A stretch of DNA of 64,000 bases, from IMG/VR virus record IMGVR_UViG_3300028283_000231, one strand, 5' to 3'. Position numbers and translations under genes: made by a program. Positions 43,326-60,900 of this stretch are shown here, one piece after another; within the stretch, counting starts at the first letter, position 1, and every line of letters begins with the position of its first letter. Source of the DNA: a virus (lineage: Duplodnaviria; Caudoviricetes). The notes beneath the pieces were generated by a model that saw nothing but the letters and a program-made list of their open reading frames with translations, was not told the DNA's origin and ran no database searches.

Positions 43326-43651
43326 TGGCTAGACTTTTCACATACGGTGAATTACAAAGGTCTGATGTTCAGATTAAAATTTTAGGTAAAGAGATTCCTG
43401 GAACATTTGACAGTATTAGTAATTGGATGGTACTGAACGATTTCGATAAAGGTAAATATTATTTACAATTAGCTAGTCAGCCAAGTGGAATAGTATTCGG
43501 TAAAATATTAGAATTAACAGACGAAGATATAAAAATCCTAGATAATTACGAAAAAAATTATTTCAGATACACCTTAAAAACAGATAATGACGTCACAGTC
43601 GAAACTTACGTCAAGAACAACGATAAATATAAAGATGATTACGCTTTTTAA
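43325..43651 (+). CDS. Gamma-glutamylcyclotransferase (GGCT/AIG2-like)
   Basis: LFTYGELQ, VFGKILELT..DIKILDNYE..Y. Confidence 0.75.
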   Translation: MARLFTYGELQRSDVQIKILGKEIPGTFDSISNWMVLNDFDKGKYYLQLASQPSGIVFGKILELTDEDIKILDNYEKNYFRYTLKTDNDVTVETYVKNNDKYKDDYAF

Positions 43652-44874
43652 ATAGTTCTAAATACTACAGCGTCTTTGAATTTCCAATAAACAATGATTC
43701 CTTGATCAAAAGAATATTTACCAGTCAATTCTTTTGAGTCTGATGCTCTTACTTTTGTTTTAGTTTTCAATAAATCTACATTCTCAATTTGTTCAACTGT
43801 TCTATATACTGGAAGTTCTTTGCCTATTTTATTAATAAGGAACTGATAATAAGATTCTATTATTTCTAATGTACCCAAGCTCCTCTCTAAGAAAGCTTTT
43901 TTCATTTTTGGATAATCTGGACTCTCAAGCGCCTTTTCGTATTTAGCTTTATTTGCCAATAAATCTTCGTGTGTAGATATTTTTTCCTCTAAAAGGAAAT
44001 CCTTATAAGAAAATTCTAAAAGATCCTCTTTCTTAAAAGGCACTACATTTTTTGCTATAACTACGTCTTCGTCGTCGTCCTCTTCTTCGCTAATTTCAAC
44101 TTTTGTATCACCTTCCTTTGGTCCATTTACTGGTATATTAAATCCAGCTTTCTTTTTAGCGTATTCAGATATTTTAATTTCACTAGCACTCATGTATATA
44201 CTAGTTGTAGTTCCATCCTCTTCAAGAAAATCTACCATACAACTATTATCGTTGTCCCATACATTAGTTACTTCACCAACTTTATTATAATATTCACTTG
44301 CTTGATCTACACATAAAACCTTATCACCCATGTTGAAAATAACATCAGCAGAAGGCTCGTCTGACGATGTAACAAATTCTTTTTTAACTAACATAGAATG
44401 CTTACTTTGATTTTTAGAATCATCTTCATCAAATTCAATAAGGTAAGCGTCTTTATTTACTTTCTTAACTGTTCCCTTGGCGTCTTTCCATTCAGTCTTG
44501 CCTTCTACGCCGTTCACAATGACTCTCTTACCTATACTGATATCGTCGTCTGATGTTTCAGTTTCTTTTTTAGGTTCTTTAGGTTTGAATTGATTTTCGA
44601 TATAACTTGATTGTTTTTTAGCTTCTGTTTCTACTGGTGCTGGTTCGTTTTCAAATCTTAATTCTGATTCTAATGCCATTATAGAAGCACCAGATGGAGT
44701 TTTGATACTGTACTCACCTTTGTTAGTTGAAAAAACAAATGCCACATCACATAAAGCGCCTTTATGTATATTATAATAAGATCTATTTGATAAAGGCGTG
44801 AATATAACCTTATCTCCTTTTTTAAATTTAGAGTCTTCTGTCGATTCTTTTATGTAATCAAAATATTTTAACAT
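43648..44874 (-). CDS. Putative virion internal protein with three SH3/KOW-like modules
   Basis: MLKYFDYIKES N-terminus; KFKKGDKVIF, ISIGKRVIV and FNMGDKVLC modules. Confidence 0.45.
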   Translation of the reverse strand: MLKYFDYIKESTEDSKFKKGDKVIFTPLSNRSYYNIHKGALCDVAFVFSTNKGEYSIKTPSGASIMALESELRFENEPAPVETEAKKQSSYIENQFKPKEPKKETETSDDDISIGKRVIVNGVEGKTEWKDAKGTVKKVNKDAYLIEFDEDDSKNQSKHSMLVKKEFVTSSDEPSADVIFNMGDKVLCVDQASEYYNKVGEVTNVWDNDNSCMVDFLEEDGTTTSIYMSASEIKISEYAKKKAGFNIPVNGPKEGDTKVEISEEEDDDEDVVIAKNVVPFKKEDLLEFSYKDFLLEEKISTHEDLLANKAKYEKALESPDYPKMKKAFLERSLGTLEIIESYYQFLINKIGKELPVYRTVEQIENVDLLKTKTKVRASDSKELTGKYSFDQGIIVYWKFKDAVVFRTI

Positions 44875-44876
44875 AC

Positions 44877-45764
44877 TTACAAATTTATTTTCCTTTTCAC
44901 ATTTAAAAATTTCAATATTATAGATTTTATTCCATCTATATTATATACCCAGTCCTTTTCCCACACATGTAACAATTTAATATTATTATCTTTACATCTA
45001 TTAGATTTATTATCGTGATAGTCCAGTTTTCTAAATTTTTCACTATGCCAATATGTTCCATTAAATTCAAATGCTATTTGTAATTCTGGTAAATAAATAT
45101 CTAACTCCAATGGTGGTATTATTTTTCTACTATTTAAAATTATTATACCATTATAATGTGTTTTTATAAAATCCTGCAGTTGTATTTCATATCCGCTTGT
45201 GTGATTATCAACTGGATTACAAACAGTGCACAATATAGTTTTATATTTATTTTTCCTTGTTATAAACACTTTTTTATTGATTCTATATATCGATCCACAT
45301 TTATCACACTTTAAAATATATTCATTTTTATCATAGTCAACATCAATTATATTTAGATTTGAATATTTATCGATCACGAATTTTTTAAAACTTGACCTCA
45401 AAAAACTTTCATTTCCATATCTTTCAGTATTGGTCTTTTTAATTTTTTCTTTTATTTCATCATTTTGAAAAACATTATCAAAACCATATATATGTTTTAC
45501 AGTTTTATCCATTTTGATTTTTTGACAATTCGAACAACAATAGTACCCACCGTTATTAAAACTCAATAAGTATCTTCTATATTGTAATTTTTTTTCTTTA
45601 CCGCAAATATCACATTTAACATTTATAATATGATGACTTGTTGGTAAAAGATGCTCTATCGGAACACTTATCACGTCGTGCTCTTTTACCACATAACCAA
45701 GATCTTTGTAATGTTTTATACAATAATTGTTTATATTAATATCTACGGTTTTATCTATTATCAT
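44877..45764 (-). mobile_element. Free-standing putative homing endonuclease (zinc ribbons + C-terminal DUF559/PD-(D/E)XK-like domain)
   Basis: CDICG, CCSNC, CDKCG, CTVCN; KTNTERYG repeat; ELDIYLPELQIAFEFNGTYWHS...LLHVWE. Confidence 0.7.
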
Positions 45765-47209
45765 ATATTAATTTTCCTTATTTGATTCATCATCATTACT
45801 TTTTTGTTAATCTCTTTTTCTTTTGGTTCTTGCTTTTCCTGTTGGTTCTCATTCCATATGAGATTTAGTTTCCATTTGATTCCGGTAATATCGTGTATAA
45901 TCCAATTCTTCATCAAATCCATAAACTTAAGACCGTAAAAAGTTCCTTGCTTTTCACATCTGCCTAACACGTTTGAAAGATTCCCTATTCCAGGGTGTCC
46001 TCCGCTTTTAGCTCCAGCATATTTGAAACCAAATTGTCTTGGTAAAACAAAATTCATTAAAAACCTCGTATATTTATCCAAATCATCTAACACTTCACCA
46101 CCTTTTAAAACTGGTAATTTTTCTGCTGCATCTATATTTCTGTAAGCAGCCAACTGTAAAGAAGCACCATAATCAAGAAGAATAAATTGAATATTCTTAT
46201 CGTGTTTACCAAGTGCCATTTCTATTAAAGCTCTTGCTCTCAAAGCGTTGGCCCAAGTTCCAACTGGTACATATACTAAATTCTTTATAACAACGAAACC
46301 GTCGAATTTAAATTTATTTTCTTCCATATTCCAGTAGAATGTTTCGAAATCTTCGATATTATATATTGTTGGTTTATCATATTGGCCAAGTGTTTTGCCC
46401 ATCATTTTACCTAGTCTTTCTGTTGAATCTGGCACAAATTCGGGTATTGCTTTTAATTCTTCGTCGTCTTCTAGAGGTATTCTGTTTAGTACTCTATGTC
46501 TTATATCTTCTTTATCTGCTCCTCTTTTTACTGATAGGTTATTCAAAGGATAAAGAATTTTAAATAATTTGAATATTTTATATATGGAAAGTGTGCCGTT
46601 GGCTACAACTTCTATAATAGTTCTATAATCACTTCTTTTAACTAATTGATTGAAAGCCCCAGCAAATACAAGTCTTGGGTCTTTTTCTTTCATTATATCT
46701 CTAAGATTAAAATTTAAAATCGTTTTAATATCAACGTTATATTCGTCATATTTTGCTGCGTCAATCATAGATATAACAGACAGAATGTATTTATCTGTTG
46801 GCATTCCAAGAACTCTTACTATTAAACCGTAACATGAGTCACTTTTCATTTTAATAGAAAATTCGCTTTTCTTATATAAATCGCCTTCTTCCATGTGGTG
46901 ATCTATATAGAGATCAAGGTCAGCGTTATCTTCAGCGTAATCAACACAAACATTTATATATGTTTTATCTATCGTTATATCTCTCCAGCCAGATTCGTAA
47001 TCCATTACACAATATCCGCATATAGTAAATCCTCTATTAGATAAATATTCTTTCATCGCTATCGCGCTGAATATGCCATCCATGTCATTGTGTGTGTAAA
47101 TTATAACATCCTTATCACGTTTGCCTTTCTTCTTCCAGTATCCCAAATCATTTGGAAATTTTACAGAAGCCTCTTCATTTAATATATATTCATTAAATTT
47201 TATTTTCAT
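45761..47209 (-). CDS. DHH/DHHA1-family phosphoesterase with a capsid-targeting-like N-terminus
   Basis: THNDMDGIFSA, CVDY, YIDHH, SGGHPGIG; starts MKIKFNEYILNEE. Confidence 0.65.
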   Translation of the reverse strand: MKIKFNEYILNEEASVKFPNDLGYWKKKGKRDKDVIIYTHNDMDGIFSAIAMKEYLSNRGFTICGYCVMDYESGWRDITIDKTYINVCVDYAEDNADLDLYIDHHMEEGDLYKKSEFSIKMKSDSCYGLIVRVLGMPTDKYILSVISMIDAAKYDEYNVDIKTILNFNLRDIMKEKDPRLVFAGAFNQLVKRSDYRTIIEVVANGTLSIYKIFKLFKILYPLNNLSVKRGADKEDIRHRVLNRIPLEDDEELKAIPEFVPDSTERLGKMMGKTLGQYDKPTIYNIEDFETFYWNMEENKFKFDGFVVIKNLVYVPVGTWANALRARALIEMALGKHDKNIQFILLDYGASLQLAAYRNIDAAEKLPVLKGGEVLDDLDKYTRFLMNFVLPRQFGFKYAGAKSGGHPGIGNLSNVLGRCEKQGTFYGLKFMDLMKNWIIHDITGIKWKLNLIWNENQQEKQEPKEKEINKKVMMMNQIRKINI

Positions 47210-48104
47210 TTAATATATTTTTTATTTTGTTTTCTATATTTTCTTTATGATTTATTCTCACTAATCTGATGTTATTCTCTTTACAATAGATGTTTTTTAT
47301 TTCATCATGGTTTTTGATAATTTCAAAATATTTAGTTCCTCCAAATATCTTCACTGGTCTTGAATGTTGTTTACCATCAAACTCTATGCAGATATTTTGT
47401 TCTGGTAGATAAAAATCAAATGGTAATTTTAATTTATCTTTACATTTTTCAAAAGTATATTGTGAATGGTGTCTTATATTATATTTTTCTAATAACAACT
47501 TAACTTTATTTTCTCCTTTACTTTTTTTACAAAACGGACACCCTTTTCCATCGTATATATGAGAAGATGCAGTTTGCTCAAATGGTCCGTGTTTAGGACA
47601 AATAATTTTTACTTTTTTCTGCGAATTGATGTATTCCACTAAAGAGTAGTCATACTTATTATAATGAACTTTTTGTGATTTCCCGATAAATTCTTTATCA
47701 GTCAATTTTTTTGTCATAGAACATTTCGAACATCCACATCCTTTTAAATGATTACTTGGTGATTGCTCAAATATACCATGTTCGTTACAGACAATTTTTA
47801 CTTTTCTTTTATTGTTTCTATATTCAACGAAACAATAGTCATACTTGTTACCATGTATCTTTTGTGATTTCTCAATAAAATTAATAGTATTAGACTCATT
47901 ATATTTTATTTTTTCGTCACTACATTTTTTACAAGCGTGTCCATTCAAATGATGACTGGCTCTAATTTCAAATGGTCCGTGGTTAGGACAAATAATTTTA
48001 ACATTTTTTAAAGAACCAATATACTTTACCATAGAATAATCATACCAATCTCCGTGTATTTTTTTAGATTCTATAATAAATTCATGTGTATCGCTTTTAA
48101 TCAT
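47193..48104 (-). mobile_element. Free-standing putative homing endonuclease (DUF723-like repeats + PD-(D/E)XK-like domain)
   Basis: Three FI.KS.K.H...YDY...KVKI.C..HG.FE repeats; LPFDFYLPEQNICIEFDGKQH. Confidence 0.75.
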
Positions 48105-48169
48105 TAAAAGTATTATTTTTTGTTATATATAAATTTTTTATTCTCGTTTTGTAATTTGCCTTTTTTGTA

Positions 48170-49042
48170 TCATCTTATTCTTTCTACTGGTTCTGGTTTA
48201 GAATACGTGCCCCCTTTTCTTTTAAATAATAAAAGTGTTTCAGGTACCCATTTAGTATTACCATCTTTGAATTTAATTCTATATTCTGTAACGTGCATAT
48301 ATGCTTTAAATTCTAATATTTCAACTTCTACTGCGTCAGGTATATATAAACATATATCACCATATTTAAATTTATCGTCTTTGCCTTCATTTAACAATTT
48401 ACCTTTTTTGTACCATCTTATTTTCACTGGTTTTTCTGGTTCTAAATCTTCCATGAAATAAAAATGTTTTCTAGCGTAAGAATCAACATGTCCGTTGTCC
48501 CATTTTATTGTATATGGGAGACCGTCGTATTCTTCCTCATCGTAAGGGTTATAATTTTGTATTACACCACAACCGCTATCTCCTCCTTTAAATCCATAGG
48601 CCTGATTTAGATAATCTTTTGGACAATCTTCTTTCATTTTTACTCTTTTACCAATAAACTCTTTAGATTCGTTTAATTTACCTTTTTTGTACCATCTTAC
48701 TCTTGTTGGTTTCTTATTATCATTGATATATTCATCAATAAAATCAACCCCTTCCATAAAATCGTAACTGTTATAATCATTACCTGGTCCTATTAAACCA
48801 CCTTTTCTACCGTACCCTAAAGCTCCTGGTTCGTGTAATATGAAGCAAAAATCGGGTGATTCATTTTTAAAACAATTATAATCTTTATTCAATGTCTTTA
48901 CTCTTTCTTCCCCCCACGTGAATCCCTCAAAATCCAAAAATTCGGCTATAACATTATAGTCTTCTATACTGTGAATACAAATAATTAATTTAGTTAAACC
49001 ATTTGATGATTCTTTAATATATGTCCAATAGTTTTTCAACAT
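48170..49042 (-). CDS. Putative packaged polyprotein: three modules joined by RWYKKGKL-(L)NE linkers
   Basis: MLKNYWTYIKES; RVRWYKKGKLNES; KIRWYKKGKLLNEG; ends RIR*YKKGKLQNE. Confidence 0.5.
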   Translation of the reverse strand: MLKNYWTYIKESSNGLTKLIICIHSIEDYNVIAEFLDFEGFTWGEERVKTLNKDYNCFKNESPDFCFILHEPGALGYGRKGGLIGPGNDYNSYDFMEGVDFIDEYINDNKKPTRVRWYKKGKLNESKEFIGKRVKMKEDCPKDYLNQAYGFKGGDSGCGVIQNYNPYDEEEYDGLPYTIKWDNGHVDSYARKHFYFMEDLEPEKPVKIRWYKKGKLLNEGKDDKFKYGDICLYIPDAVEVEILEFKAYMHVTEYRIKFKDGNTKWVPETLLLFKRKGGTYSKPEPVERIR

Positions 49043-49117
49043 AACGCTATATATTAAAATTTTTAAACAAAACTTTTAAGGAATAAATTCGTATAAAATA
49101 AAACATTAATTATTGAT

Positions 49118-49900
49118 ATGCCTGTCGTAGATAGAAATACAAATATTACATTCACAATATCAACCGATCAATTATCAAATCTTCTAAAGAAAATAAAAGA
49201 TTTGACTTCAATTGATCAACGTATAGTCATGAAAATAGACGCCAATAACGTTTTATTGTTCTCTTTTGTAGGTGAGACTTTCAAAAATATACACGCCTTC
49301 AAAAGTTACATCTTCTCTCTTGAGGAAGTTTTTACTATTAAAAAAGGCGAACTAGAAGAACCTCTTTTCTTTATAGCAAGAGACGGTAAGAAACTATACA
49401 GAATATTAGAAAATTTCCTTATCTATAAAGAAGAAATAAATTGTAAAATTTCAGCCAACGACGAAAACTACGTTAATTACATCGCTTTCGATACTAAAAA
49501 GATGAGCGAGAAAGTTATTGGTAGTGACCCTATTGCTATTGGTTCTCAGATTAGTATAGACGATATTAATTTCCTTATGAATATTGATAATTCTAAATTC
49601 AATTTCAGATTAGATAGAGCTGATTTCTTACAAATTAAAAAAAGAGGAGTCATAGAAAACGAACCAAAAAGTGTTCTATATATCAACGTAGTTAATAAGG
49701 CGTTAACTATTGGTGAAACCAAATGGCATCTAAACATTTTAGATGAAGTTGAAAGTGAAGATATTATGCTGTCTTTCCCCAAAGCGTATTTTAATACAAT
49801 AAATCCAACAGAGTATATACAGATATACGTATTTGAAGATTTCATACTCGCTAAGTATGACGATTACAATCTCATGATTATTTTAGAAACAACAATTTAA
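49118..49900 (+). CDS. Possible DNA sliding clamp / processivity factor (gp45/PCNA-like)
   Basis: 260 aa with a two-fold helix-plus-beta pattern (FTISTDQLSNLLKKI; FRLDRADFLQIKKR; LSFPKAYF). No diagnostic motif. Confidence 0.35.
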   Translation: MPVVDRNTNITFTISTDQLSNLLKKIKDLTSIDQRIVMKIDANNVLLFSFVGETFKNIHAFKSYIFSLEEVFTIKKGELEEPLFFIARDGKKLYRILENFLIYKEEINCKISANDENYVNYIAFDTKKMSEKVIGSDPIAIGSQISIDDINFLMNIDNSKFNFRLDRADFLQIKKRGVIENEPKSVLYINVVNKALTIGETKWHLNILDEVESEDIMLSFPKAYFNTINPTEYIQIYVFEDFILAKYDDYNLMIILETTI

Positions 49901-49947
49901 ATTTTCATTTTTCCATATTAATATATAGAAGAAAATAAGTTAGAGTT

Positions 49948-50556
49948 ATGACCAAGAATTATAAATCCTTTGTTGAAGCTGCTAAATGGTATAGTAGTCC
50001 TGAGGAATTAGACGCTGAAGAACGTAGAAATAGTTTTAGTGGTTATCACGATTACGATGAAGGTGGCGACGGTGGTGATTACTACGATGACGATGGTGAT
50101 CCCGATGAATATGGCAAAATTCAGGAGTTTCAAATACAATCCGGCAGAGAACCAGATGAAGATATGGAAGAAAGAGAACTTGATTTAGATATGGATTTTG
50201 ATAGAGATGAAGATCCTAAAACCCCAATAAATGTTGGAGAAGAAGTAGTTTATCTCGGTAATACTGGTGGCAGACGTTATCAATTAGGTTCAGTTCATAA
50301 ATTGAGAGAAGATGGTAAAATTGTAGTTAGGTTTGACGATAAGAAACTTGTTGCTGTGAGTAAACCACATCTAAGACATAAACTTAGCGAAGAAGAAATT
50401 GTGAAAAAGAAAGCTGAATTAGAAATAAAAAAACAAGAAAGAAAGACTAAAAGAGCTGAACAAGAAGCTAAGAGATTAGCACAAGAAGAAGAGGCTAAAA
50501 AGAATCCACCTCCAGTAACTGGCGCAAGATGGTGGGAAAAAAATAAAAAAGAATAA
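49948..50556 (+). CDS. Putative virion internal protein: acidic region + SH3-like module + coiled coil
   Basis: MTKNYKSFVEA; D/G/Y-rich stretch; VGEEVVY...EDGKIVVRFDDKKL. Confidence 0.45.
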   Translation: MTKNYKSFVEAAKWYSSPEELDAEERRNSFSGYHDYDEGGDGGDYYDDDGDPDEYGKIQEFQIQSGREPDEDMEERELDLDMDFDRDEDPKTPINVGEEVVYLGNTGGRRYQLGSVHKLREDGKIVVRFDDKKLVAVSKPHLRHKLSEEEIVKKKAELEIKKQERKTKRAEQEAKRLAQEEEAKKNPPPVTGARWWEKNKKE

Positions 50557-51575
50557 TGGTAAAAAGATATAAACAATTCATCAACGAAGGAGTAGACGAA
50601 AAAGCAAAAATGGACGAACTCCTCGATAAAGGTTTAGAAAATTTAACACCAGATGAAAAGATACTCCTTGATAAACTTAGCAAAGGTGGTACTCTAGATC
50701 CAGATAATAAACCTGGTAATAGTCCTGTTCATCAAGATGATGATGATTTAGATTATCTTAATAAAATGTTAGGAAATCACGCTGATGAAGAAATTCCTGT
50801 TAAACCTGTGGTTAAAGGTGGACCAGTGAATGACGACGGACCAACAGAAGGCGATAGAATTGTTTATTATAAAGAAGGTTCAGAGCACGATGGTAAAACT
50901 GGTATTTTTGCTGGTATTAGAGAAGATGACGGTAAATATAGAATAGTCTTTGATGATAAGAAAAAATTAGCAGCCAACGCTAAAAATGTTTACGCTGCTG
51001 GTACACCAAGACCTGCACCAAAGAAAAAATTACCTGAGGGTTATCATGAAATTCCAGAAGAAAAATTGGGTAGAGCAGAATGGGGACCAGGTACATTCGA
51101 TGTACCAGATACATTCTACGGTGGTAAAGCACCTGAAAAACCAAAATCTAATTTCAAAAAAGGGGATAAAGTTTTATACAAGAACGATAAATCTGAGCAT
51201 AATAACAAACAAGCAACTTTTGTAGAACAAAAAGAAGACGGCAAATTATCAATCAGATTTGAAGGTGGTGGTAAATTGGCTTGTAATCCAAAGAACGTAG
51301 TTCCTTTCTCAATAGAATTACCTAAACAAGATTTTATTATTCGTCTTGGAACAATACCAGAGAATAATTCGATAGGTGCTGGGGTATTCCTTGATAGTGG
51401 TGAAATGTATGACGAACACATTCTAAATCAATACCCAGAGTTACAAAGAATGGGATTTGAAGAACCCGCTGAAGGTGATTTACGTTATAACGGAGATCTT
51501 GATATAGAAGAATTACACATCGAGTTACAAGAGAGAGATTTCAGAGTTGAAGTTGTTAACGGAAATTTATACTAA
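50556..51575 (+). CDS. Putative virion internal protein with two SH3-like repeats
   Basis: MVKRYKQFINE; GDRIVY..SEHDGK..DGKYRIVFDDKKKL and GDKVLY..SEHNNK..DGKLSIRFEGGGKL. Confidence 0.5.
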   Translation: MVKRYKQFINEGVDEKAKMDELLDKGLENLTPDEKILLDKLSKGGTLDPDNKPGNSPVHQDDDDLDYLNKMLGNHADEEIPVKPVVKGGPVNDDGPTEGDRIVYYKEGSEHDGKTGIFAGIREDDGKYRIVFDDKKKLAANAKNVYAAGTPRPAPKKKLPEGYHEIPEEKLGRAEWGPGTFDVPDTFYGGKAPEKPKSNFKKGDKVLYKNDKSEHNNKQATFVEQKEDGKLSIRFEGGGKLACNPKNVVPFSIELPKQDFIIRLGTIPENNSIGAGVFLDSGEMYDEHILNQYPELQRMGFEEPAEGDLRYNGDLDIEELHIELQERDFRVEVVNGNLY

Positions 51576-51603
51576 AATATTTTTTTAGTAAATAAAACTT
51601 TCG

Positions 51604-51611
51604 TATCTTTG
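51604..51611 (+). promoter_or_regulatory. Bacteroidota-type -7 promoter element (TAnnTTTG)
   Basis: Intergenic cgTATCTTTGtg 18 nt before the ATG at 51630, heading a run of small genes. The -33 TTTG is imperfect. Confidence 0.5.
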
Positions 51612-51629
51612 TGTTAGAAAAATACGAAT

Positions 51630-51947
51630 ATGAAAGTACAATCCTATATTATTAAGAAAGAAGTCCTTGTGGATTCAGAATACGAATTACTAACGAACGT
51701 TAGTGGTGCATTCAACGCGGAATCCCCCTTTGCAGTTAAAGTAGCAGATATTAAAGAATGTTTAGAAATTACCAACGATCTAAACACTGGTGAAGAAGTT
51801 ATGGATTGTGCTGGTAGGACATGGATTCCCGACTACGATGGCGATATTAACTTCATGACTAAAATCCTCAAAGAAGCTGAAGGTTGTGAATACATCATTG
51901 TTGAATTTGATAATTATTACGAACTATATACGATTGAAACAGATTAA
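51630..51947 (+). CDS. Hypothetical protein
   Basis: First ORF after the TATCTTTG element. Confidence 0.55.
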   Translation: MKVQSYIIKKEVLVDSEYELLTNVSGAFNAESPFAVKVADIKECLEITNDLNTGEEVMDCAGRTWIPDYDGDINFMTKILKEAEGCEYIIVEFDNYYELYTIETD

Positions 51948-51970
51948 TTAACCCCTTAACACTTAAACAA

Positions 51971-52081
51971 ATGGCAAACGAAAAAGTTTACATCGAGATT
52001 GATGGTGAAGTTATCTTTTTGAACCCCGATATGGAAGATGTTATCCGTTGGGCTAATAGTGATTATACAACTGAGGACTAA
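51971..52081 (+). CDS. Small hypothetical protein (36 aa)
   Basis: Read by eye: MANEKVYIEIDGEVIFLNPDMEDVIRWANSDYTTED; TAATG coupling to the next ORF. Confidence 0.5.
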   Translation: MANEKVYIEIDGEVIFLNPDMEDVIRWANSDYTTED

Positions 52082-52254
52082 TGGAATACATTAAGATTAA
52101 AACTGGTGACGATGTAATTCGTCTTGAGTTTGTTATGAGTGCTGAAGAAATGAAAGCAGTATATAATCTTCTTATAGAACAGCACAAAGATATGATTTCA
52201 TATAAGAAAGTAGCAAAAAGAATGGAAAAACAATTAAAGACTTTAGAAAAATGA
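52081..52254 (+). CDS. Small hypothetical protein (57 aa)
   Basis: Read by eye: MEYIKIKTGDDVIRLEFVMSAEEMKAVYNLL...; ATGA overlap downstream. Confidence 0.55.
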   Translation: MEYIKIKTGDDVIRLEFVMSAEEMKAVYNLLIEQHKDMISYKKVAKRMEKQLKTLEK

Positions 52255-52616
52255 AAAGAATTAAACTTTGCAATTTAGTATTTTTAGGACTTGTTGTCCT
52301 TTCAATGTTTGGATTATTTGCTTCTTGCACTGATCCTGGAACAACTGAAAAATTTACTGGATGTGGTAGTGATAGCGCTAAGATCAAACCTTGTATTATA
52401 AATGGTGACACTTTGGAACTTTATCAGTATTACTACGCCACTGGTTCAGCAATTTGGATTGCTAAATCTAAAAATTATTCTACCACAAATCTTACTTACA
52501 GAGTCGGTAAGCATGACGAATCTGTTATTATTCTGAATGGTGATCCTTATAGGAGAATTCAGGGAACTGTTATTATGGAAAATGATAGTATGGTTTTAAT
52601 CAAGAAAAAACTGTAA
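52251..52616 (+). CDS. Putative lipoprotein
   Basis: Basic N-terminus, hydrophobic stretch, lipobox-like FASC. Confidence 0.5.
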   Translation: MKRIKLCNLVFLGLVVLSMFGLFASCTDPGTTEKFTGCGSDSAKIKPCIINGDTLELYQYYYATGSAIWIAKSKNYSTTNLTYRVGKHDESVIILNGDPYRRIQGTVIMENDSMVLIKKKL

Positions 52617-52617
52617 T

Positions 52618-52803
52618 ATGTTACATTGGGCATTCAAATATTTTACATTTTTTATTGACGCTTGTCTTTTGGGGATGGGGTTAGTTGTCCTAATCTTCGG
52701 AGCAAATGGTTACGCTAAACCATTAGGTATAATAGTAATAATCGCGTCAATCCTTATGATTTTATACGATATTAAATACGTTAAAGATAATAAAACTGAA
52801 TAA
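52618..52803 (+). CDS. Small two-TM membrane protein
   Basis: Two hydrophobic segments. Confidence 0.5.
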   Translation: MLHWAFKYFTFFIDACLLGMGLVVLIFGANGYAKPLGIIVIIASILMILYDIKYVKDNKTE

Positions 52804-52805
52804 CT

Positions 52806-52997
52806 ATGAACCAATTTTTAAAAGAAACATTCACCGCTATTGCCTGTTTCCCAGCTTTACTTTACGTATTATTTTCATTTGGAAACGGATCTTTTGATAT
52901 ATCAACATGGACTGAAGGAGCTAGAGGATCACTTGCTGCTTTTGGAGCACTTTTATCAGCCGTAATCACAATTATTCAGGGACTTAGATATTTTTAA
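52806..52997 (+). CDS. Small two-TM membrane protein
   Basis: Two hydrophobic segments. Confidence 0.5.
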   Translation: MNQFLKETFTAIACFPALLYVLFSFGNGSFDISTWTEGARGSLAAFGALLSAVITIIQGLRYF

Positions 52998-53101
52998 TTT
53001 AACATTTTGTTAATCTTGAAACTTAAACTTCACCCCGTTTTCCTTAATATATATATATAATAGCAACCTTAGGCATTCTTTCTATAATCTTTTAAGCAAA
53101 A

Positions 53102-53126
53102 AAAATCCCAATTAAGTTGGGATTTT
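53102..53126 (-). terminator. Intrinsic terminator, possibly bidirectional
   Basis: aaaatcccaa-ttaag-ttgggatttt stem, followed by a long T run on the minus strand, between convergent genes. Confidence 0.7.
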
Positions 53127-53147
53127 CTGTTTAAAATAAGCCTTAAC

Positions 53148-53387
53148 TTATTTCTTCTTTCCTAATTTCTTCACAGGAAGCTTAGCAATTGAGTCAGCTT
53201 TCTTAATTGAGTCAGCTTTTGCAATTGAATCAGCTACTAATTGAGCGGCTTGAACTTTTGCGCAAGAATCAGCTACAAATGTTGAATCCTGAATTCTCTT
53301 AGCTTCAATTTCCTTAGCGGATGGACCACAAGATACAGCCAAAAATGTAACGGCTGCGATTACCAAAATACCAAATAATTTTTTCAT
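53148..53387 (-). CDS. Bacteroidota-style lipoprotein with DSI(A/K)K repeats
   Basis: MKKLFGILVIAAVTFLAVSC lipobox; ADSIAKADSIKKADSIAK. Confidence 0.7.
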   Translation of the reverse strand: MKKLFGILVIAAVTFLAVSCGPSAKEIEAKRIQDSTFVADSCAKVQAAQLVADSIAKADSIKKADSIAKLPVKKLGKKK

Positions 53388-53537
53388 GTTTACTTTCTTT
53401 TATTTTTTAAAAATGTTATATTTCTTATCCCCCAATTTAATCAAAGTTTAAAAAAATTTTAACATTTTTTAACGATTTTATATATTCATTTAAAAAAGTC
53501 TATTTTTTCCAAATTGATTTTTTATATATAGAAAGGT

Positions 53538-54413
53538 ATGATAAATATAATAAAATATTCTTTATTTGAATCTAAGAAATATAAAAAGTATAACAATATG
53601 CTTAAGAATCTTGGTGTTATGGACGATAAAGGAGATATCAACCTTAAAGACATGACTGAGAAGATCAATCAGTTCCTTTCTAAAGACGGTAACAAGGATA
53701 AATTTATGAAAGATTACGACGATAAGATTTCTCCAGATGTTAAAGTGAAGAATGAAAAATTTAAAGCCATCGATTTAAAACCAAGTCAAACTGAAATATT
53801 CCTTGATCACGTTCTTTCCAGATTAGTTGTAAACGACGGTGATAGAAAACAAATACTTAAAGGTGGATTTAAAGATCACGATATTCTCATTAGCTCAGAC
53901 GGTCATATTATAGACGGACATCATAGATGGTTATGTGCCTTCATATTAAATCCAGAATGTGAATTAGATTGCACAGAAATAGAAATACCAATAGAATACG
54001 CTCTTCCTGTTATCAACGCCATAATAGAAGCTTCTGAAAAAGAAACAGATACTTTAAAAGATACTTATAAAATTAATATCTTTGACGCTATGGATTGGAA
54101 GAAGGAGAAGTTATTTAAGAAGATGAATTCGATTATTAAGAAGGCTATAAAGAGTGGAGTTGGTATAGGTGAAGAGAAGAAGAAATCTAATAAATATCCG
54201 AAAACAATTGAAGGTTTAGATAATATAAGTACAGACGTCACTAAACCTTTTTATAAGAAACTTAGAAAGAAATTAAAGTTACAGAATCATCCTCTTAAAC
54301 ACATAAGAGAGAATATGAAACAAATTCCGAAACCAAAGGAGTTATTTAGTGATAGAAAAGATATGCCACAATTAAAGAAGAAGGACGCTAAAAACTTTTA
54401 TGATACCTATTGA
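53538..54413 (+). CDS. ParB/Sulfiredoxin-like domain protein with a capsid-targeting-like N-terminus
   Basis: LKPSQTEI, ILISSDGHIIDGHHRW; starts MINIIKYSLFES; TTTATATATAG upstream. Confidence 0.6.
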   Translation: MINIIKYSLFESKKYKKYNNMLKNLGVMDDKGDINLKDMTEKINQFLSKDGNKDKFMKDYDDKISPDVKVKNEKFKAIDLKPSQTEIFLDHVLSRLVVNDGDRKQILKGGFKDHDILISSDGHIIDGHHRWLCAFILNPECELDCTEIEIPIEYALPVINAIIEASEKETDTLKDTYKINIFDAMDWKKEKLFKKMNSIIKKAIKSGVGIGEEKKKSNKYPKTIEGLDNISTDVTKPFYKKLRKKLKLQNHPLKHIRENMKQIPKPKELFSDRKDMPQLKKKDAKNFYDTY

Positions 54414-54819
54414 AATTTTAAAGATTAAAGACGACCTAAGAAATGGTTATCATATTTTATGCCGTGTCCACATCAATGGTAAAGAATTTAGAATGCTTGT
54501 AGATACTGGTTCTTCTATGACTTTGTTTGATATGAAAAAACAAAAGGAAATAAGTCAGTACGAAGCAGAAAATAACGACCAACATATAGTAGCTGTTGGT
54601 AGTGGTAATATTAAAAGTAAATATATCGTTATAGATGAAATGAGAATAGGTAATGTAATCATAAGAGATTATAAAACTATGTTACTTAATTTAGAATTCA
54701 TTAACGAACATTTTAGAACTAATGGTAATCCAACGATTGATGGTATAATTGGCGGAGATATATTAGCTGATCATAAGGCTGTTATAGATTACGAAAAGCG
54801 TGAAATGAAGTTATCATAG
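54400..54819 (+). CDS. Retropepsin-like aspartyl protease
   Basis: FRMLVDTGSS, DGIIGGDIL, VIDY. Confidence 0.85.
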   Translation: MIPIEILKIKDDLRNGYHILCRVHINGKEFRMLVDTGSSMTLFDMKKQKEISQYEAENNDQHIVAVGSGNIKSKYIVIDEMRIGNVIIRDYKTMLLNLEFINEHFRTNGNPTIDGIIGGDILADHKAVIDYEKREMKLS

Positions 54820-56209
54820 ATTCGTTATATAATTTCCCCTTTTTGTACCATCTTACCTTACCAGCTTCTTCTTTTTCTTCTTTTTTTCTCGATAAATATC
54901 TCACATCACAAGGGTGATCGTTCCACTCGGGGTCGTCTAAAAATCTATAATGGACTGTTTCTGCGTCTCTTTGTTGTCTGGTTATCATAACCTCGGCACC
55001 AACTTTATCTTTGTAATTTTTTCCTTTATAAATTAGGATTTCACCAACTTTAAAAAAATCTCCTTTATCCTCGTTGATTTTATTTTCTTCCAACCAATCT
55101 TCTTCACCGTAAGGATCGTGATGTAAATGTAATTTATTTAATTCGTCTCTTTTTATTTTTAATAGATTCGGTCTATCTTTTACGTAGTTTTCAATATCTT
55201 TAAAATTATCAATAAATTCATCAACAGTTACAGTTACGTCATTATCTGCTGTTCTACTCTGGTAAATTCTTTTTCCATCGTTATCTATTCCTATACCAAC
55301 ATTATAATGTGGGCATAAATAACCTCTATAAGTTCCATCATGATACCAAGACGGAAACCATCTCTCAAGCTCTTCTCCGCCACCTCCCCAAACAAACCAA
55401 TTCTTTTTAAGGAAATTGATTAATTCGTGATATTTTTCTTTAGAATCTACTTTTACGTAAAGACTATCTATACTTAAATAACTTTCATTTATCTTACTTT
55501 CGTTTTCCCAGTCTTCTTCGCCATATGGATCTACGTCTTTAGTTTTGAGATATAGTTGTTTAAGTCTTCTTATTTCTTTTTTAGTTTTTCTAATTTTATC
55601 TACTTTTTTCAAATTCCCTCTTTCGAACCAAATACCATCTACTTGCCAATATCTATCATTATTTGGGTTCAGATTCACTTTAAATTGTGTTCTATTATTC
55701 CTAAAATCAGTGATAACTCCTACTCTACTATTATATCTATCTACGTATCCATGTATAATTTCAACATCATCACCAACATATAAATCTTTTTTACTTTCAT
55801 TGACTACACTTTCATATTCCCATTCTTCTTCACCGTATGGGTCCCAAGGTGATACAGGATCTGGTTTATCTTCGTAATATATTACATTTGTAACACCACT
55901 ACCTATATGTAATATAACATCATAATCATTATCAGCAACCATGTGAACTTTCTGATTTTCATCTAAATATATCTTAACAATCTTCCAATGTCCTGCTCCA
56001 TGTATTTCATTCCCACCATCTTTATTCTTACCTAAAACTGGGAAACTACACACCTTACCTATCAATCTCTTTTTAAGGTATTCAGTAAATCTTCCCCACA
56101 ATTCTTTACCGTCTCTTATTCTATCTATTCTTTGAATATCGTGTAAAATATTAAGAGGAACAATCTCCTTAATAATATATCCTTCGGGTGTGAATTTACT
56201 TATACGCAT
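54782..56209 (-). CDS. Putative packaged polyprotein: four modules joined by DPYGEExW..xNE and RWYKKGKL-YNE linkers
   Basis: DPYGEEEWEYESVVNES; DPYGEEDWENESKINES; DPYGEEDWLEENKINED; KVRWYKKGKLYNES. Confidence 0.5.
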   Translation of the reverse strand: MRISKFTPEGYIIKEIVPLNILHDIQRIDRIRDGKELWGRFTEYLKKRLIGKVCSFPVLGKNKDGGNEIHGAGHWKIVKIYLDENQKVHMVADNDYDVILHIGSGVTNVIYYEDKPDPVSPWDPYGEEEWEYESVVNESKKDLYVGDDVEIIHGYVDRYNSRVGVITDFRNNRTQFKVNLNPNNDRYWQVDGIWFERGNLKKVDKIRKTKKEIRRLKQLYLKTKDVDPYGEEDWENESKINESYLSIDSLYVKVDSKEKYHELINFLKKNWFVWGGGGEELERWFPSWYHDGTYRGYLCPHYNVGIGIDNDGKRIYQSRTADNDVTVTVDEFIDNFKDIENYVKDRPNLLKIKRDELNKLHLHHDPYGEEDWLEENKINEDKGDFFKVGEILIYKGKNYKDKVGAEVMITRQQRDAETVHYRFLDDPEWNDHPCDVRYLSRKKEEKEEAGKVRWYKKGKLYNESMITSFHAFRNL

Positions 56210-56295
56210 AACTCGACTATATATTAAAAATTAAAAACAATTTACTCGATATTGATTATATATGATAACAAACCTTAAAAAATAATAGCCTATGA

Positions 56296-56970
56296 ATGAT
56301 CAAAACAATTGCCCACTTCGCGGACATACACGTTTATAAGTCTTTAGATAGACACGATGAATACAGAAAAGTCTTACAACAAGTTTACAAGAAATTAGAA
56401 GAACAAAAACCCGATAGAATAATAGTCGCTGGTGATACATATAGTGATTATATCGACCTCGAAGGCGAAGCTCTCATTCTTATAGGTGAAATACTTAATC
56501 GCTTCGCTAAAATTGCTCCCGTTATTATTACACGAGGCAACCACGAAATTAGAAAGAAAAATAGAAGTAGAATAGATACAGTTAAAACTGTTACAGACCT
56601 CCTCCAAAACCCAAAAGTTACATATTATAACCAATCTGGTTTCTACCCAGACGATAACGTCATGTGGGTGGTATGGGACCACGTTGATCATAGATATAAC
56701 AACATTAACCCTTGGAAAAATATAACACATTCAAGAGATAAGAAACTTACTTATATAGATTTATACCACGATCCAATAGATGGTTGTGTATATCATAACG
56801 GTTACAATCCAGGTAATAGAACCTTTCCTAGTCCGTCAGATTTTAAAGGAGAATTTGGTTTCTTCGGTGATATTCATTTAAGACAATATTTTAATTTTAA
56901 AGAGGTTGAATTAGAAATAGATGAAGAAGATCTTGATAAATATCTAAAAGATGGATGGAAAATAGTTTAA
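56296..56970 (+). CDS. sbcD: Mre11/SbcD-like metallophosphoesterase, N-terminal fragment of a split gene
   Basis: ADIH, AGD, RGNHE, YHDP, GDIH. Stops before the SSLIQQNFGE motif. Confidence 0.8.
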   Translation: MIKTIAHFADIHVYKSLDRHDEYRKVLQQVYKKLEEQKPDRIIVAGDTYSDYIDLEGEALILIGEILNRFAKIAPVIITRGNHEIRKKNRSRIDTVKTVTDLLQNPKVTYYNQSGFYPDDNVMWVVWDHVDHRYNNINPWKNITHSRDKKLTYIDLYHDPIDGCVYHNGYNPGNRTFPSPSDFKGEFGFFGDIHLRQYFNFKEVELEIDEEDLDKYLKDGWKIV

Positions 56971-56981
56971 TTTCCCCTGTG

Positions 56982-57034
56982 TTTTTGTTGTTTTAGACAT
57001 TTAGATTTTTATATATACAATAAAACAACAAAAA
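56982..57034 (+). promoter_or_regulatory. 14-bp inverted repeat masking the endonuclease leader, with a putative late promoter in its loop
   Basis: tttttgttgtttta (56982-56995) pairs with taaaacaacaaaaa (57021-57034). TTTATATATAC is at 57008-57018 and the ATG at 57039. Confidence 0.65.
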
Positions 57035-57038
57035 TTAT

Positions 57039-57926
57039 ATGAAATGTTTAATTTGTGGAAAAGAACATAACAATAAGAAGTACTGTTCAGAACAATGTCA
57101 ATATGAAGCTTATAGAGTTAAGAAAGTGGAAAGAGTTAATATAAAGTGTTTAAATTGTGGCGAAGAATTTGAAATATTGAAAACTAAACAAAAAAAATAT
57201 TGTAGTAGAAAATGTGTAGATGAACATAAAAAGATAACATATTTAGGTGAAAATAACCCTATGTTCAATTATGATGTATCAGATGACACTAGAAAAAAAC
57301 ATTCTGAAGCGTCAAAAATGATGTGGAGAAATCAAGATGTGTCAGATAGAATAAAAAAAAGAATGAAAGAACATAATGAAAATAGTGAATATCCAAATGG
57401 ATGGTCTAATGAATCAAGGGAAAGAAGAATTAAAACTACTATCGAAAAATTTGGAGTAGTTCACAACTTCATGAACGAAGGAGTTAGAGATCAAGCGAAT
57501 AAAACATGTATGGAAAGATATGGGAAAATGTCATACGAACTGATGTTGGATGGATTACATAAAACTAATATAACATCAATAGAAAAAATATTTGAAAATT
57601 TCTTAATAATTAATGATATAAAATATGAAAAACAATTTAGAATATATTTTAAAAATGAAAAAAGTGAATTGAAATTCAGATCATATGATTTTTATTTAAT
57701 AGACAAAAAAACAATTGTTGAAATAGATGGTGATTATTGGCACGGTAATCCAATGTTTTTTAAGAAATTAAACGAAACTCAACTGAAAAATAAAGCCAAT
57801 GATATATTTAAAGATGAATTAGTTATAATTAAAAATTTAAATATCATAAGGTTTTGGGAAGTTGATATACATAATAACAACTACGAGCAAAAGATATTAA
57901 GTTTATATGGCAAAAATAAAGATTAA
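57039..57926 (+). mobile_element. Free-standing putative homing endonuclease (zinc-finger repeats + DUF559-like nuclease) inserted in the mre11-rad50 gene
   Basis: CLICG..KKYCS.QC and CLNCG..KKYCSRKC; YDFYL...IVEIDGDYWHGNP...IIRFWE. Confidence 0.75.
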
Positions 57927-60900
57927 GAAAAAAATCCCCAGCGCTGGATTCGCATCGTCGCTTATTCAACAGAACTTTGGTGAAGATCCATTCGGACATG
58001 GTTATCTTCTATGGAATATAGAAGAAGGAACGGTTCAAGATATTAACATTGATAACGAACATAGATTCATTAAATTTGAGATCAGTCCGAATACAGATTA
58101 CGATAAATTACATTTAATTTCTAAATACGTTGGTAAATACAACAAATTTAGAGTTGAATGGAACGAACACGCGGCTTTCATTACAAACGAAAATGAAACG
58201 AAAATAAAAAAATATCTTAAAGAAAAATACGGCGCAGAAGATATTGAAATTAAACCAAATAGAATTTATACAGATATTAAAGACGGTAAAATGCTGTCTG
58301 AAATTATTGATATAAATGATAAAGACGTACAACAAGGTATTATAAAACAATTCCTTAAAGAAAATAAATTTAAAGATGATTTTGTCAATCAGGTAATAGA
58401 AATAGATAACGTTATAAATGATAGATTACAATTAAGTGATACTAGAAATATTATTTGGAACATTGATAAGTTTTGGTTTAGTAATTTCAAATCCTACGGT
58501 GACGATAATATAATTGAATGGGATAACATAAATGGTGTTATTCAAATTGGCGGTGAGAACCAACAAGGTAAAACTACCATCATTGATGCGATATGTTTTA
58601 TACTTTACGGTACAACTATATCTACACAGAAAACAGAAAAGAACGGTAATAATAGATATATCAACAAAAATAGAAATAAGAATGCTTGTGACGGTGGTGC
58701 CGTCATAGATGTTAACGGTGAAAAGTACATAATGTACAGAAAAGTAGAAAGAGAATTTAAGAAGGGAAGAGAGATTAAATCTGTACCTATGACTCTTGAT
58801 TACTATAAGGGAACTGAAATGTCTGACGAAAATAAATTAACAGGTGAAAGAAAAGCGTCTACACAAAAATTACTGGACGAGGTACTTGGTAATTTTGATG
58901 ATTTTGTAAGATTGGCATTAACAAATGCTGATAACTTAAACTCTCTTCTTTCAATGGATAGAAGTGTTTTCATTGATTCTATCATAAAGGACGCTGGTTA
59001 CGATATATTTGAAAAGAAATTATCTGAATTTAAAGAATATAAAAAGGAATTAAATCTTGAGAAAATAAATGTTAACCAGATTGAATTACAAAACGAAATC
59101 AAAAAAATATCAGATGATTTAAAAGATAAAGAAGATTTTTTATCTGATACTAATATTGATATAGAAGATATAGATAAACAAATAGTAGATAATGTTAATG
59201 AAAAGGAAGACTGTTTAAGAAGATTACACAAGATGGACGAAACAGTAATGAATATTAATGTGAACGACGTTAAAACACAAATAAGAGTATCTAAAACAGA
59301 AAAGGAAGAGATAAGAAAAGAAATTGACGAATTGGAAAAGGACATAACTCTTTTACCAGAAGAATTCGATTATGATAACTTTGAAAAATTAACAGGCCAA
59401 CACGAAAAATATGTTACAGAGAAGAATAAAAGAGATATCGAACTATTACAGTTGAAGAATGTTTTTAAACAGAACGAAGAGAAAATTCTCAACGTTGATA
59501 AGGATATTAACATTGAAAAAACAAAGTATGTTGATTATTTAAGGAATAATATTGCTGGTTTGAGAATTGAATTAAGGGAAACTATTAACGAGATAAATAA
59601 TAATTCCAACGTTAAAAGAAATGAGTTAGAAAATCAAAAGAATAAATATAGAAATGAATTAAATCTTCTTAAGCAAAATGGTATTGACGAAAAACAAAAA
59701 ATCGTTGATTATACAAACATGCTTAATGGTGATAATCAAATCTGTGTTACCTGTAATCAACCTATTGTTACAAAGGACGAAGAACATATGAACGGACTTA
59801 TAACAGATAGTAAAAAGAAAATAGAAGATATTACTAAAACTGGTAAACAGAAACTTGATTTCTTAAATGAATGCAATACAAAATTAGAAGCCTTATCTAC
59901 TCTTTCAGATAAATTAATTGATGAAAAAACTATCGAATTTACAGATAAAATAAAGGAGATTCAAAACAAAGTAGATAACTTCAACATCGCCTATATACAA
60001 GATCGAATTGAAGAAGTGATGAAAAATAAAGAGAAAGCAGAACTCGAAAACGTTTCTTACGATACAAAAATAGAAGAGAGAAAGAAATACGTTTCTAAAC
60101 TAGACACAGAAATTAAAAGACTATCTCTCACTATAACCAGTCTTAAAGTAGACAAGGCTCTCTTCGAAAAATGTAGAACTTTAACTCATAAGAGAGATCT
60201 ATTAACTTCACAATATAAAGACGCTCAAAGATCTTTCGATGATAACACTAAATTATTAAATGAATATCTTAAAAACGAAGCTCTTATAACTGAGAACGAA
60301 CGCATCAACACCTCACTAAAATCTATTAAAGAACAGATTGATACGCTCACTTCTAAGAGGAGCGAACTTTTAGATGATAAACTATCTTATTCTAATGAGA
60401 TCACTCTGTCTAAGAAGGTTATAGTAGATTTAAAGGATAAATTAGAGCGTTATATTGAGCAGGAAAAGAGAGAAGAACTTCATAACGTTTATTTAAAATT
60501 AATGCACAGAACAGGTCTTCCTACTTATCTTTTAACAAAGAATATTGATATATTGAACGAAGAGTTGAACTCCTTGTTAACAAACATTAATTTCACTTTA
60601 TTCTTTGACGAGGATCTGAATTTGAAGTTACAACACGATGGGTTAGATGATATTATAAATGTTATTGAAACATCTGGTATGGAAAGAACATTTAGTGCTA
60701 TTATTTTGAAGATGGTTTTAAGAATTATAAACTTTAAGAGTAAACCTAACTTTATGTTTTTAGACGAGGTTATCAATAGACTTGTGAATAAGTCAGTAGA
60801 TAAGTTTATGGAATTGCTTGAGGTATTGAAAAATAAAATTGATAAATTAATAGTCATCGAACACGATAATGAAATAGCTAGTGATATGATTATCAATGTA

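Follow-up and report, generated by a model that had tools for sequence, protein, structure and literature searches.

Two multi-module open reading frames of a Mahaphage-clade giant phage are predicted to be mosaics of small modules joined at portable peptide motifs

Introduction

Do some open reading frames (ORFs) of giant phages encode strings of small proteins, and are such strings cut into their parts? The question is raised by two ORFs, of 475 and 290 amino acids (aa), in a 64,000-nucleotide (nt) stretch of viral DNA (IMG/VR record IMGVR_UViG_3300028283_000231; Duplodnaviria, Caudoviricetes), the whole of which is called the window below. The short motifs DPYGEExW and RWYKKGKL recur in these ORFs where one module joins the next. 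Both ORFs are predicted to be mosaics of small modules which fold independently, most of them SH3/Tudor/KOW-like barrels, connected by flexible linkers that carry the motifs, and the comparison with homologues indicates that modules were gained, lost and reordered at the motif joints. Both motifs are portable peptide tags, which were found on approximately one tenth of the predicted proteins of the 735-kb relative LR756501.1, otherwise unrelated to each other. Taken jointly, portable peptides of the docking type, module strings derived from fusion and shuffling at the joints are well supported.

From its sequence, the window phage is a relative of LR756501.1 and a giant phage of the Mahaphage clade; the product of the 475-aa ORF is 85% identical to its LR756501.1 counterpart across all 475 residues. 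LR756501.1 is an uncultured phage of 735,411 bp, the largest genome of the "Mahaphage" clade, and the biggest members of this clade are predicted to have Bacteroidetes hosts (PMC7162821). Its complete sequence, with 1041 called ORFs, was used as a stand-in for the genome of the window phage, and the head genes, tag counts and site densities given below were taken from this relative. The G+C content of the window is 26-35% and its genes are tightly packed; the contig from which it comes has a length of 208 kb. Its DNA is contained in lake-water metagenomes (public runs; DNA contigs only).

Modular structure of the two ORFs

Four modules make up the 475-aa ORF (54782-56209, minus strand), namely an alpha/beta module and an SH3/KOW-like barrel, with two weaker ones after them. 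A first-pass annotation of this DNA had listed the motif copies in both ORFs, and all of them were found where it had placed them. In the 475-aa ORF, linkers with DPYGEEEW (55820-55843, followed by EYESVVNES), DPYGEEDW (55508-55531, followed by ENESKINES) and DPYGEEDW (55094-55117, followed by LEENKINED) part the first three modules, and the last module closes with RWYKKGKL-YNES-MITSFHAFRNL, the RWYKKGKL being encoded at 54830-54853, all on the minus strand. In the AlphaFold2 (AF2) model the predicted local distance difference test score (pLDDT) was above 90 for module 1 (residues 1-125) and 81-89 for the SH3-like barrel (141-200), while every linker following a motif scored below 50; a beta-hairpin was predicted for RWYKKGKL (pLDDT approx. 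60). Foldseek matched this model to KOW, Spindlin and Tudor folds.

The 290-aa ORF (48170-49042, minus strand) starts with MLKNYWTYIKES, a tag resembling the capsid-targeting sequence (CTS) of phage T4, and continues with three modules, each closing with RWYKKGKL. The first two copies (48674-48697, followed by NES, and 48395-48418, followed by LNEG; minus strand) were detected both by motif search and by DNA repeat search. The middle barrel (131-200) of the AF2 model had pLDDT values of 84-96, and the linkers, including both RWYKKGKL segments, stayed below 50; Foldseek gave weak Tudor, YorP and PsaE matches. Thus in both cases a single ORF encodes several units which are predicted to fold independently (modules at pLDDT 81-97, linkers below 50), and the proposal of the first-pass annotation that independent modules are joined by linkers is borne out by the models. 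Pfam and PHROGs contained no family for the 475-aa ORF and gave only chance-level matches for the 290-aa ORF, and no Pfam or PHROG family spans either motif. Searches with the whole models in Foldseek showed only a generic likeness to SH3, KOW and Tudor folds, and an Atlas search with module 1 yielded weak leads only.

The third copy of the motif in the 290-aa ORF (48152-48175, minus strand, then QNEN) reads R*YKKGKL, with TGA replacing the Trp codon. It had been regarded as the end of a third module; the copy is indeed present, but the ORF stops there, at the TGA in 48170-48172. Past this codon the frame is intact and encodes YKKGKLQNENKKFIYNKK, followed by TAA (48113-48169, minus strand), a lost C-terminal tail. 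LR756501.1 has TGG at the position of the TGA, reads RWYSNGKLRNENKKFIYNKK and goes on to the same ...NKKFIYNKK end, thus the 290-aa ORF has lost its last 18 codons. Since TGA is a normal stop in the window, closing 20 of the 67 called ORFs of at least 80 aa, the codon is a real nonsense codon. Decoding of this TGA as Trp was rejected in view of these stops, the lack of any opal-suppressor tRNA in LR756501.1 and the presence of the same TGA in the contigs of three lake-water runs (X1-X3). The rarest stop codon of the window is TAG (5 of the 67 ORFs of at least 80 aa), and LR756501.1 contains two neighbouring tRNAs with the anticodon CTA, of the amber suppressor type, at 690585-690738. In the contig of a further run (X4) 42 nt, corresponding to 14 codons in frame, are missing at window positions 48519-48560, in the middle module of the 290-aa ORF, and it is therefore a strain variant.

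Gain, loss and fusion of modules

The first-pass annotation had held that an invariant module order among relatives would contradict it. The order was found to vary. The LR756501.1 homologue of the 290-aa ORF is a 488-aa protein with five RWYKKGKL-type units as compared with three in the window, module 1 of the 475-aa ORF lies at six different positions (79, 109, 138, 155, 162 and 390) of other proteins, and the same modules occur alone or reordered in homologues. Two near-identical proteins, P0017 and P0018, differ in that the former stops 2 residues past the motif and the latter continues for approx. 270 residues.

It had also been noticed that the RWYKKGKL copies are near-identical DNA repeats. 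This is the case: the four copies form one repeat family of 58 nt with 64-74% identity and a nearly identical 24-nt core. The further suggestion, that modules are shuffled by means of these repeats, is confirmed as far as the number and order of the modules differ among relatives, but it is as protein and not as DNA that the repeats are selected. Since synonymous codons vary in both motifs at every position where there is a choice, selection acts on the peptide.

Several traces of fusion were detected. The internal copies of module 1 retain a Met, which in 4 of the 6 directly follows a Glu. Two fusion fossils were observed in which a C-terminal tag with two more residues is joined to a complete N-terminal tag, as in DPYGEEIW-EG-MKNYTEFVNE, and C-terminal tags mostly abut or overlap the start of the next gene.

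Distribution of the motifs

Genome-wide counts showed that the motifs are broader in their distribution than had been seen in the window. In LR756501.1 there are 100 exact copies of DPYGEE.W and none of the reversed motif, and the chance expectation, estimated from residue composition, is about 1e-4. The copies are C-terminal in 40 cases (28 with exactly two residues past the Trp), N-proximal in about 19 and internal in about 40. The N-proximal copies come directly after the start or after N-terminal tags with the pattern MIKKFxxF(I)xE. An explanation of the two terminal residues, that they are forced by the overlap with the ATGATTAA start of the next gene, was discarded, as it holds for only 4-5 of the 40. 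In case of RWYKKGK, a DNA-pattern search gave 12 matches and the control none, and RWYKKGK-like copies were found in about 20 ORFs of LR756501.1, placed as DPYGEExW is. A single protein can carry up to 6 motif copies.

The carriers of DPYGEExW number 112 of the 1041 ORFs, and the rate is similar (10 of 98) among the proteins with membrane-like segments. The modules flanked by the motifs have little in common: 150 segments fell into 146 BLAST clusters. In IMG/VR, at least 241 copies of DPYGEExW were present, at least 84 of them C-terminal; they lie on at least 117 stretches, which belong to at least 34 low-GC contigs. Both are therefore linear motifs in the usual sense, that is short conserved peptides in disordered regions of unrelated proteins, under selection at the protein level. 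A tblastn search of the GenBank phages with a 33-residue linker gave no match, nor was a cultivated carrier found, and in a full-text search of the literature for the strings of both motifs all matches of DPYGEE were unrelated and the other strings (YGEExW, WYKKGK) gave none.

Enzymes are found among the carriers, too. In a 1179-aa ORF of LR756501.1 (154863-158402, minus strand) four DPYGEExW linkers connect a dCMP/cytidine deaminase domain, SH3-like modules and an HD-domain-containing CCA-adding enzyme, and a phosphoribosyltransferase-like protein of the same phage also carries the motif. A second, free-standing paralogue of the head protease (11314-11850, minus strand; phrog_207, 3e-19) ends in DPYGEExW, and so do its homologues in two IMG/VR contigs (L077 and L085), the proteins of the three phages being 161-178 aa long. 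The claim that each piece keeps a common docking peptide is sustained in that the motifs are portable terminal peptides of unrelated proteins; since DPYGEExW also occurs on membrane-like proteins and metabolic enzymes, it is doubtful that its role would be strictly docking to the capsid.

The motifs tend to go together with N-terminal tags. The tag pattern is present at 8.2% of the N-termini as compared with 2.0% of the internal Met positions, and the co-occurrence of N-terminal tag and motifs is strong (odds ratio 6.2, p = 1.5e-10).

Candidate cleavage site and head protease

LR756501.1 possesses a head module of the T4 type, with a portal protein (PF07230, 1e-69), a gp23-like capsid protein (PF07068, 2e-25) and a gp21-like head maturation protease of the S77 type (phrog_207, 5e-27). 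The protease is fused to a scaffold-like region in an 807-aa protease-scaffold protein (73913-76336). The scaffold-like region has about 12 tandem repeats of 14 residues with EYIAE in each, and the protein also holds KKINEAV, RTINESL, GEINEAV, KQINESK and AMNESK. The EYIAE repeats, which resemble the end of the T4 CTS, look as if a series of T4-type cut sites were built into the protein.

The CTS of T4 is MKTYQEFIAE. In the N-terminal tags described here an aromatic residue, a second aromatic residue, I/L/V and E are spaced as positions 4, 7, 8 and 10 of this sequence. In T4, gp21 cuts after L/I-x-E, and positions 4 and 7 of the CTS serve targeting and positions 8 and 10 processing (PMC9026906). 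The pattern [LIVMFYT][NK]E[SGA] was found 0.87 times per 100 aa in the protease-scaffold protein, 0.86 times in the 14 residues that follow a motif, 0.28 times in the first 20 residues of the ORFs and 0.068 times elsewhere. The candidate site is thus enriched approximately 13-fold, both in the linkers and in the protease-scaffold protein, over the rest of the proteome. The joint between modules 1 and 2 has the form x-[N/Y]-E in all eight homologues compared, with a hydrophobic residue at P3 in seven of them, and the flanks drift. Together, these site data form the chief, though indirect, argument for cleavage.

These data suggest the following model. The strings would have arisen through in-frame fusion of adjacent small tagged genes. 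In those N-terminal tags which had thereby become internal, the aromatic "targeting" half would have decayed, and the "processing" half, a hydrophobic residue-[N/Y/K]-E followed by S/G/A, would have been retained. A head protease of the T4 gp21 type would cut after the Glu of the linker, as well as in its own scaffold at YIAE and INE(S/A), and each released module would have DPYGEExW or RWYKKGKL, with a few further residues, at its C-terminus, as the free-standing small proteins do. Both motifs would dock to one common partner, not necessarily the capsid. Cleavage of the strings by the head protease into separately tagged pieces is plausible, at a probability which we place slightly below even.

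A number of observations weigh against this cleavage. In the multi-module family of the window ORFs, NE[SGA] follows the internal motif in 29 of 56 linkers; outside this family the figures are only 6 of 38 for the relative and 2 of 80 among the IMG/VR matches listed. The agreement of the linker ends x-N-E with the ends of the N-terminal tags, noted in the first-pass annotation, holds for the processing half of the tags, but such ends are rare after motifs outside this family. Besides the L and I used by T4, the candidate site can have V, T, F, Y, Q or E at P3. The match of the protease to PF03420 reaches 22.9-24.7 bits, under the 27-bit cut-off of Pfam. DPYGEExW sits at the proteome-wide rate on small proteins with membrane-like segments, joins dCMP-deaminase to CCA-adding enzyme and is present on the phosphoribosyltransferase-like protein, which are not obvious capsid cargo. 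The phage is uncultivated and known from DNA alone, with its head genes read in a relative.

The N-termini of the two ORFs also differ. In the 290-aa ORF, MLKNYWTYIKES has aromatic residues at positions 4 and 7 and I/L and Glu at positions 8 and 10. The idea of one packaging tag carrying several effectors fails for the 475-aa ORF, the N-terminus of which, MRISKFTPEGYIIKE, is part of a confidently folded module that lies internally in the homologues. The 475-aa ORF thus has no real N-terminal tag, and its route of entry into the prohead would be left unexplained. The stub MITSFHAF at its other end, which had been noted as tag-like, was rejected as a C-terminal tag. The gene of a retropepsin-like aspartic protease of 139 aa (54400-54819, plus strand; PF13650, E 1.5e-12) runs towards the 475-aa ORF, and the two share a convergent overlap of 38 nt (54782-54819), where the last 12 codons of the 475-aa ORF (..SMITSFHAFRNL and stop) face the protease end ..DYEKREMKLS and stop. 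This overlap was found in LR756501.1 and contig L160 as well, that is in three related genomes. Since the stub, ESMITSFHAFRNL, lies inside the overlap with the 3' end of the protease gene, the dual coding already explains its conservation and no tag role is needed.

A reading of N-E-S as a glycosylation sequon, prompted by a large glycosyltransferase cluster in the window, was also rejected: Glu is frequently followed by G, A, D, E or N, and the ends of the N-terminal tags read NEG, NEA or KES.

Alternative explanations

The alternative that survives best is that the strings act uncut, as full-length multivalent scaffolds in which SH3/Tudor-like barrels alternate with sticky acidic-aromatic and basic-aromatic motifs. 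This we regard as possible, on the unlikely side. In such a case, with about the same reservation, the singly tagged proteins might be "clients" that help to form a hub, network or condensate inside infected cells, for example a replication or assembly factory, and x-N-E would be either a leftover of fused tags or simply part of the linker. The low-confidence position of the motifs between SH3/Tudor/KOW-like modules agrees with this, as does the high valency of up to 6 copies per protein and the presence of tags at either end of proteins, membrane-like and metabolic ones among them. The scarcity of NE[SGA] after most internal motifs outside the multi-module family and the missing CTS-like tag of the 475-aa ORF would also be expected. 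On the other hand, uncut scaffolds would leave unexplained why the processing half is kept in 29 of 56 linkers against a background of 4%, why the site is approximately 13-fold enriched in the protease-scaffold protein and why internal modules begin with Met straight after Glu. The binding of modules to motifs is putative.

The ORFs could also encode ordinary tandem-repeat proteins, where the motifs are terminal strands or hairpins of repeated domains with no role as tag or cut site and the number of modules changes simply because repeats expand and contract. The unit GxKVKxxxD...RWYKKGKL is indeed repeated in the 290-aa family, with three paralogous modules in the 488-aa protein of the relative, AF2 builds RWYKKGKL of the 475-aa ORF as a hairpin, and tandem RWY-like hairpins occur in P0030-P0032. 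However, the motifs flank modules which are nearly all unrelated (146 clusters from 150 modules) and are placed at the extreme C-terminus or right after the start of unrelated small proteins, and both RWYKKGKL segments in the model of the 290-aa ORF remain below pLDDT 50 beside a module at 84-96. We consider this explanation improbable.

Still less can be said for the neighbouring retropepsin-like protease as the enzyme that processes the 475-aa protein in the style of a retroviral polyprotein. Its gene overlaps the 3' end of the 475-aa ORF and the pairing is kept in three related genomes; since these are syntenic relatives, the linkage is not independent evidence. The gene is present in a single copy in the 735-kb LR756501.1, while the tagged multi-module proteins are spread over the whole 735 kb, and the conserved Glu at P1 suits gp21-type proteases, not retropepsins, so that this role is very improbable. 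Lastly, the idea that the repeats act at the level of DNA, as sites of recombination, homing or regulation, and are translated by chance can practically be set aside: the 24-nt core of the RWYKKGKL copies, the codon skew of DPYGEExW (CCT 67% vs 35% genome-wide, TAC 75% vs 36%) and the swapping of modules at the joints would fit, but synonymous variation occurs wherever there is a codon choice, the motif is read in a single frame and within ORFs, with no reversed copies, and its placement tracks protein ends, not gene spacing.

Comparison with known systems

The nearest known counterpart of cleavage by the head protease is the CTS which T4 uses on IPI-III and Alt and which gp21 removes. The N-terminal tags described here are likewise approx. 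10 residues long with the same spacing, as in MVKRYKQFINE, the portal, protease and capsid genes of the relative are of the T4 type, and YIAE sites are repeated in its scaffold. In T4 one tag precedes one protein, whereas here several modules follow the tag and processing-type sites recur internally; the candidate site, which is known here from sequence alone, favours N at P2 and tolerates V, T, F and Y at P3. We know of no T4 counterpart of DPYGEExW and RWYKKGKL. In phiKZ, 201phi2-1 and SPN3US, many head proteins are processed by diverged gp21-like proteases, which cut behind the Glu of short motifs and often do so at multiple sites in one protein (PMC9026906, PMC10052503). The additional cuts of phiKZ-type giant phages destroy long propeptides, whereas in the present case the pieces between the sites are predicted folded modules with a conserved end peptide, and they are shuffled.

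Short targeting peptides for HK97-fold shells are found in other systems, namely the cargo-loading peptides of encapsulins and the C-terminal tail of the HK97 protease. They resemble our motifs in being short terminal peptides of unrelated proteins, and DPYGEExW ends the small second protease paralogue and its IMG/VR homologues; unlike them, DPYGEExW is also N-proximal and internal, and occurs on membrane-like proteins and metabolic enzymes, and its binding to a shell is putative. Eukaryotic RNA viruses and retroviruses make polyproteins in which one ORF holds several units with short conserved sites at the joints and a virus-encoded protease, and a retropepsin-like gene is adjacent here as well. 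The present strings differ from these in belonging to a DNA phage, in consisting of small accessory modules instead of the replication or structural core and in their variable order, and their cleavage is putative. Multivalent scaffolds made of SH3 domains and linear motifs are known from eukaryotic signalling. Here, too, SH3/Tudor-like barrels alternate at high valency with conserved motifs in disordered linkers, but the motif is acidic-aromatic instead of proline-rich and module-motif binding is putative.

In a wider and rather speculative reading, the motifs would be a proteome-wide addressing code of Mahaphage-clade phages, in which the tag on about one tenth of the proteins docks to one receptor, which could be the inside of the prohead or else a hub or condensate built by the phage, and new cargo is recruited by fusing and re-cutting tagged genes. 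The cargo of this code might, equally tentatively, comprise enzymes, membrane proteins, the second head-protease paralogue and the multi-module strings. To our knowledge, a self-extending protein-sorting system of this sort has not been described for any bacterial virus.

Most genes of the largest known phages are without known function. A peptide code for a common destination, combined with a site code for the cuts, would sort hundreds of orphan proteins in one step, and would allow the probable packaged or co-localised proteins of uncultivated megaphages to be listed from sequence. If the head protease does cut the strings, they would represent a version of T4 capsid targeting and processing that works with modular polyproteins; if they are uncut, the motifs are two linear motifs not described before, for which the receptor is missing. 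In both cases they could become tags with which proteins are loaded or co-localised. How megaphage genomes invent multi-domain proteins is also shown by the fusion and fission of tagged genes at the motifs.

Neighbouring genes and other observations

Further tagged ORFs are located near the two strings. A 264-aa ORF (39111-39905, minus strand) with the tag MIKSFKLFEE and a promoter-like element upstream contains two YGEExW copies (DPYGEEVW at 39495-39518 and YGEEDW at 39426-39443, minus strand). A 408-aa ORF (43648-44874, minus strand) has the CTS-like tag MLKYFDYIKES with SH3-like modules directly after it, and a DHH-family protein (45761-47209, minus strand) has the CTS-like tag MKIKFNEYILNE. 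Two tagged ORFs with Tudor/SH3-like modules lie at 49948-51575 on the plus strand; one starts with MTKNYKSFVEA and ends in ARWWEKNKKE, the other starts with MVKRYKQFINEG. The T4-type spacing seen in the 290-aa ORF is also found in the ORFs at 43648-44874, 45761-47209 and 50556-51575.

An upstream element is shared by the two multi-module ORFs. The copy just 5' of the ATG of the 290-aa ORF, TTGTTTAAAAATTTTAATATATAG (49047-49070, minus strand; DNA repeat D9), is similar to a late promoter, and a second copy is found 5' of the 475-aa ORF (56217-56240, minus strand). The element common to both, TAATATATAG, is like those upstream of the LR756501.1 head genes, where [AT]ATATATA precedes the portal, protease and capsid genes. 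Promoter-like elements of the TAATATATAG / TAATATATA type were present upstream of 42% of the tagged genes vs 19% of the others. These elements lend mild support to late co-expression. Five ORFs of similar size (332-361 aa), several of them with N-terminal tags, are found at 60755-66169 of LR756501.1, some kb upstream of its portal, protease and capsid genes, and are candidates for internal head proteins.

Two differences in gene content from LR756501.1 were also observed. Between the 290-aa ORF and the DHH gene the window has a gene for a 303-aa HNH/homing-type endonuclease (47193-48104; phrog_559, 4e-73), which is not at the corresponding place in the relative. Beyond the 475-aa ORF, at 56296-60942, a Mre11/SbcD-Rad50/SbcC fusion is split into ORFs of 224 aa and 1011 aa by a 295-aa ORF (57039-57926), while in LR756501.1 (8307-11915 of L001) the same fusion is one ORF of 1202 aa and the 295-aa ORF is lacking.

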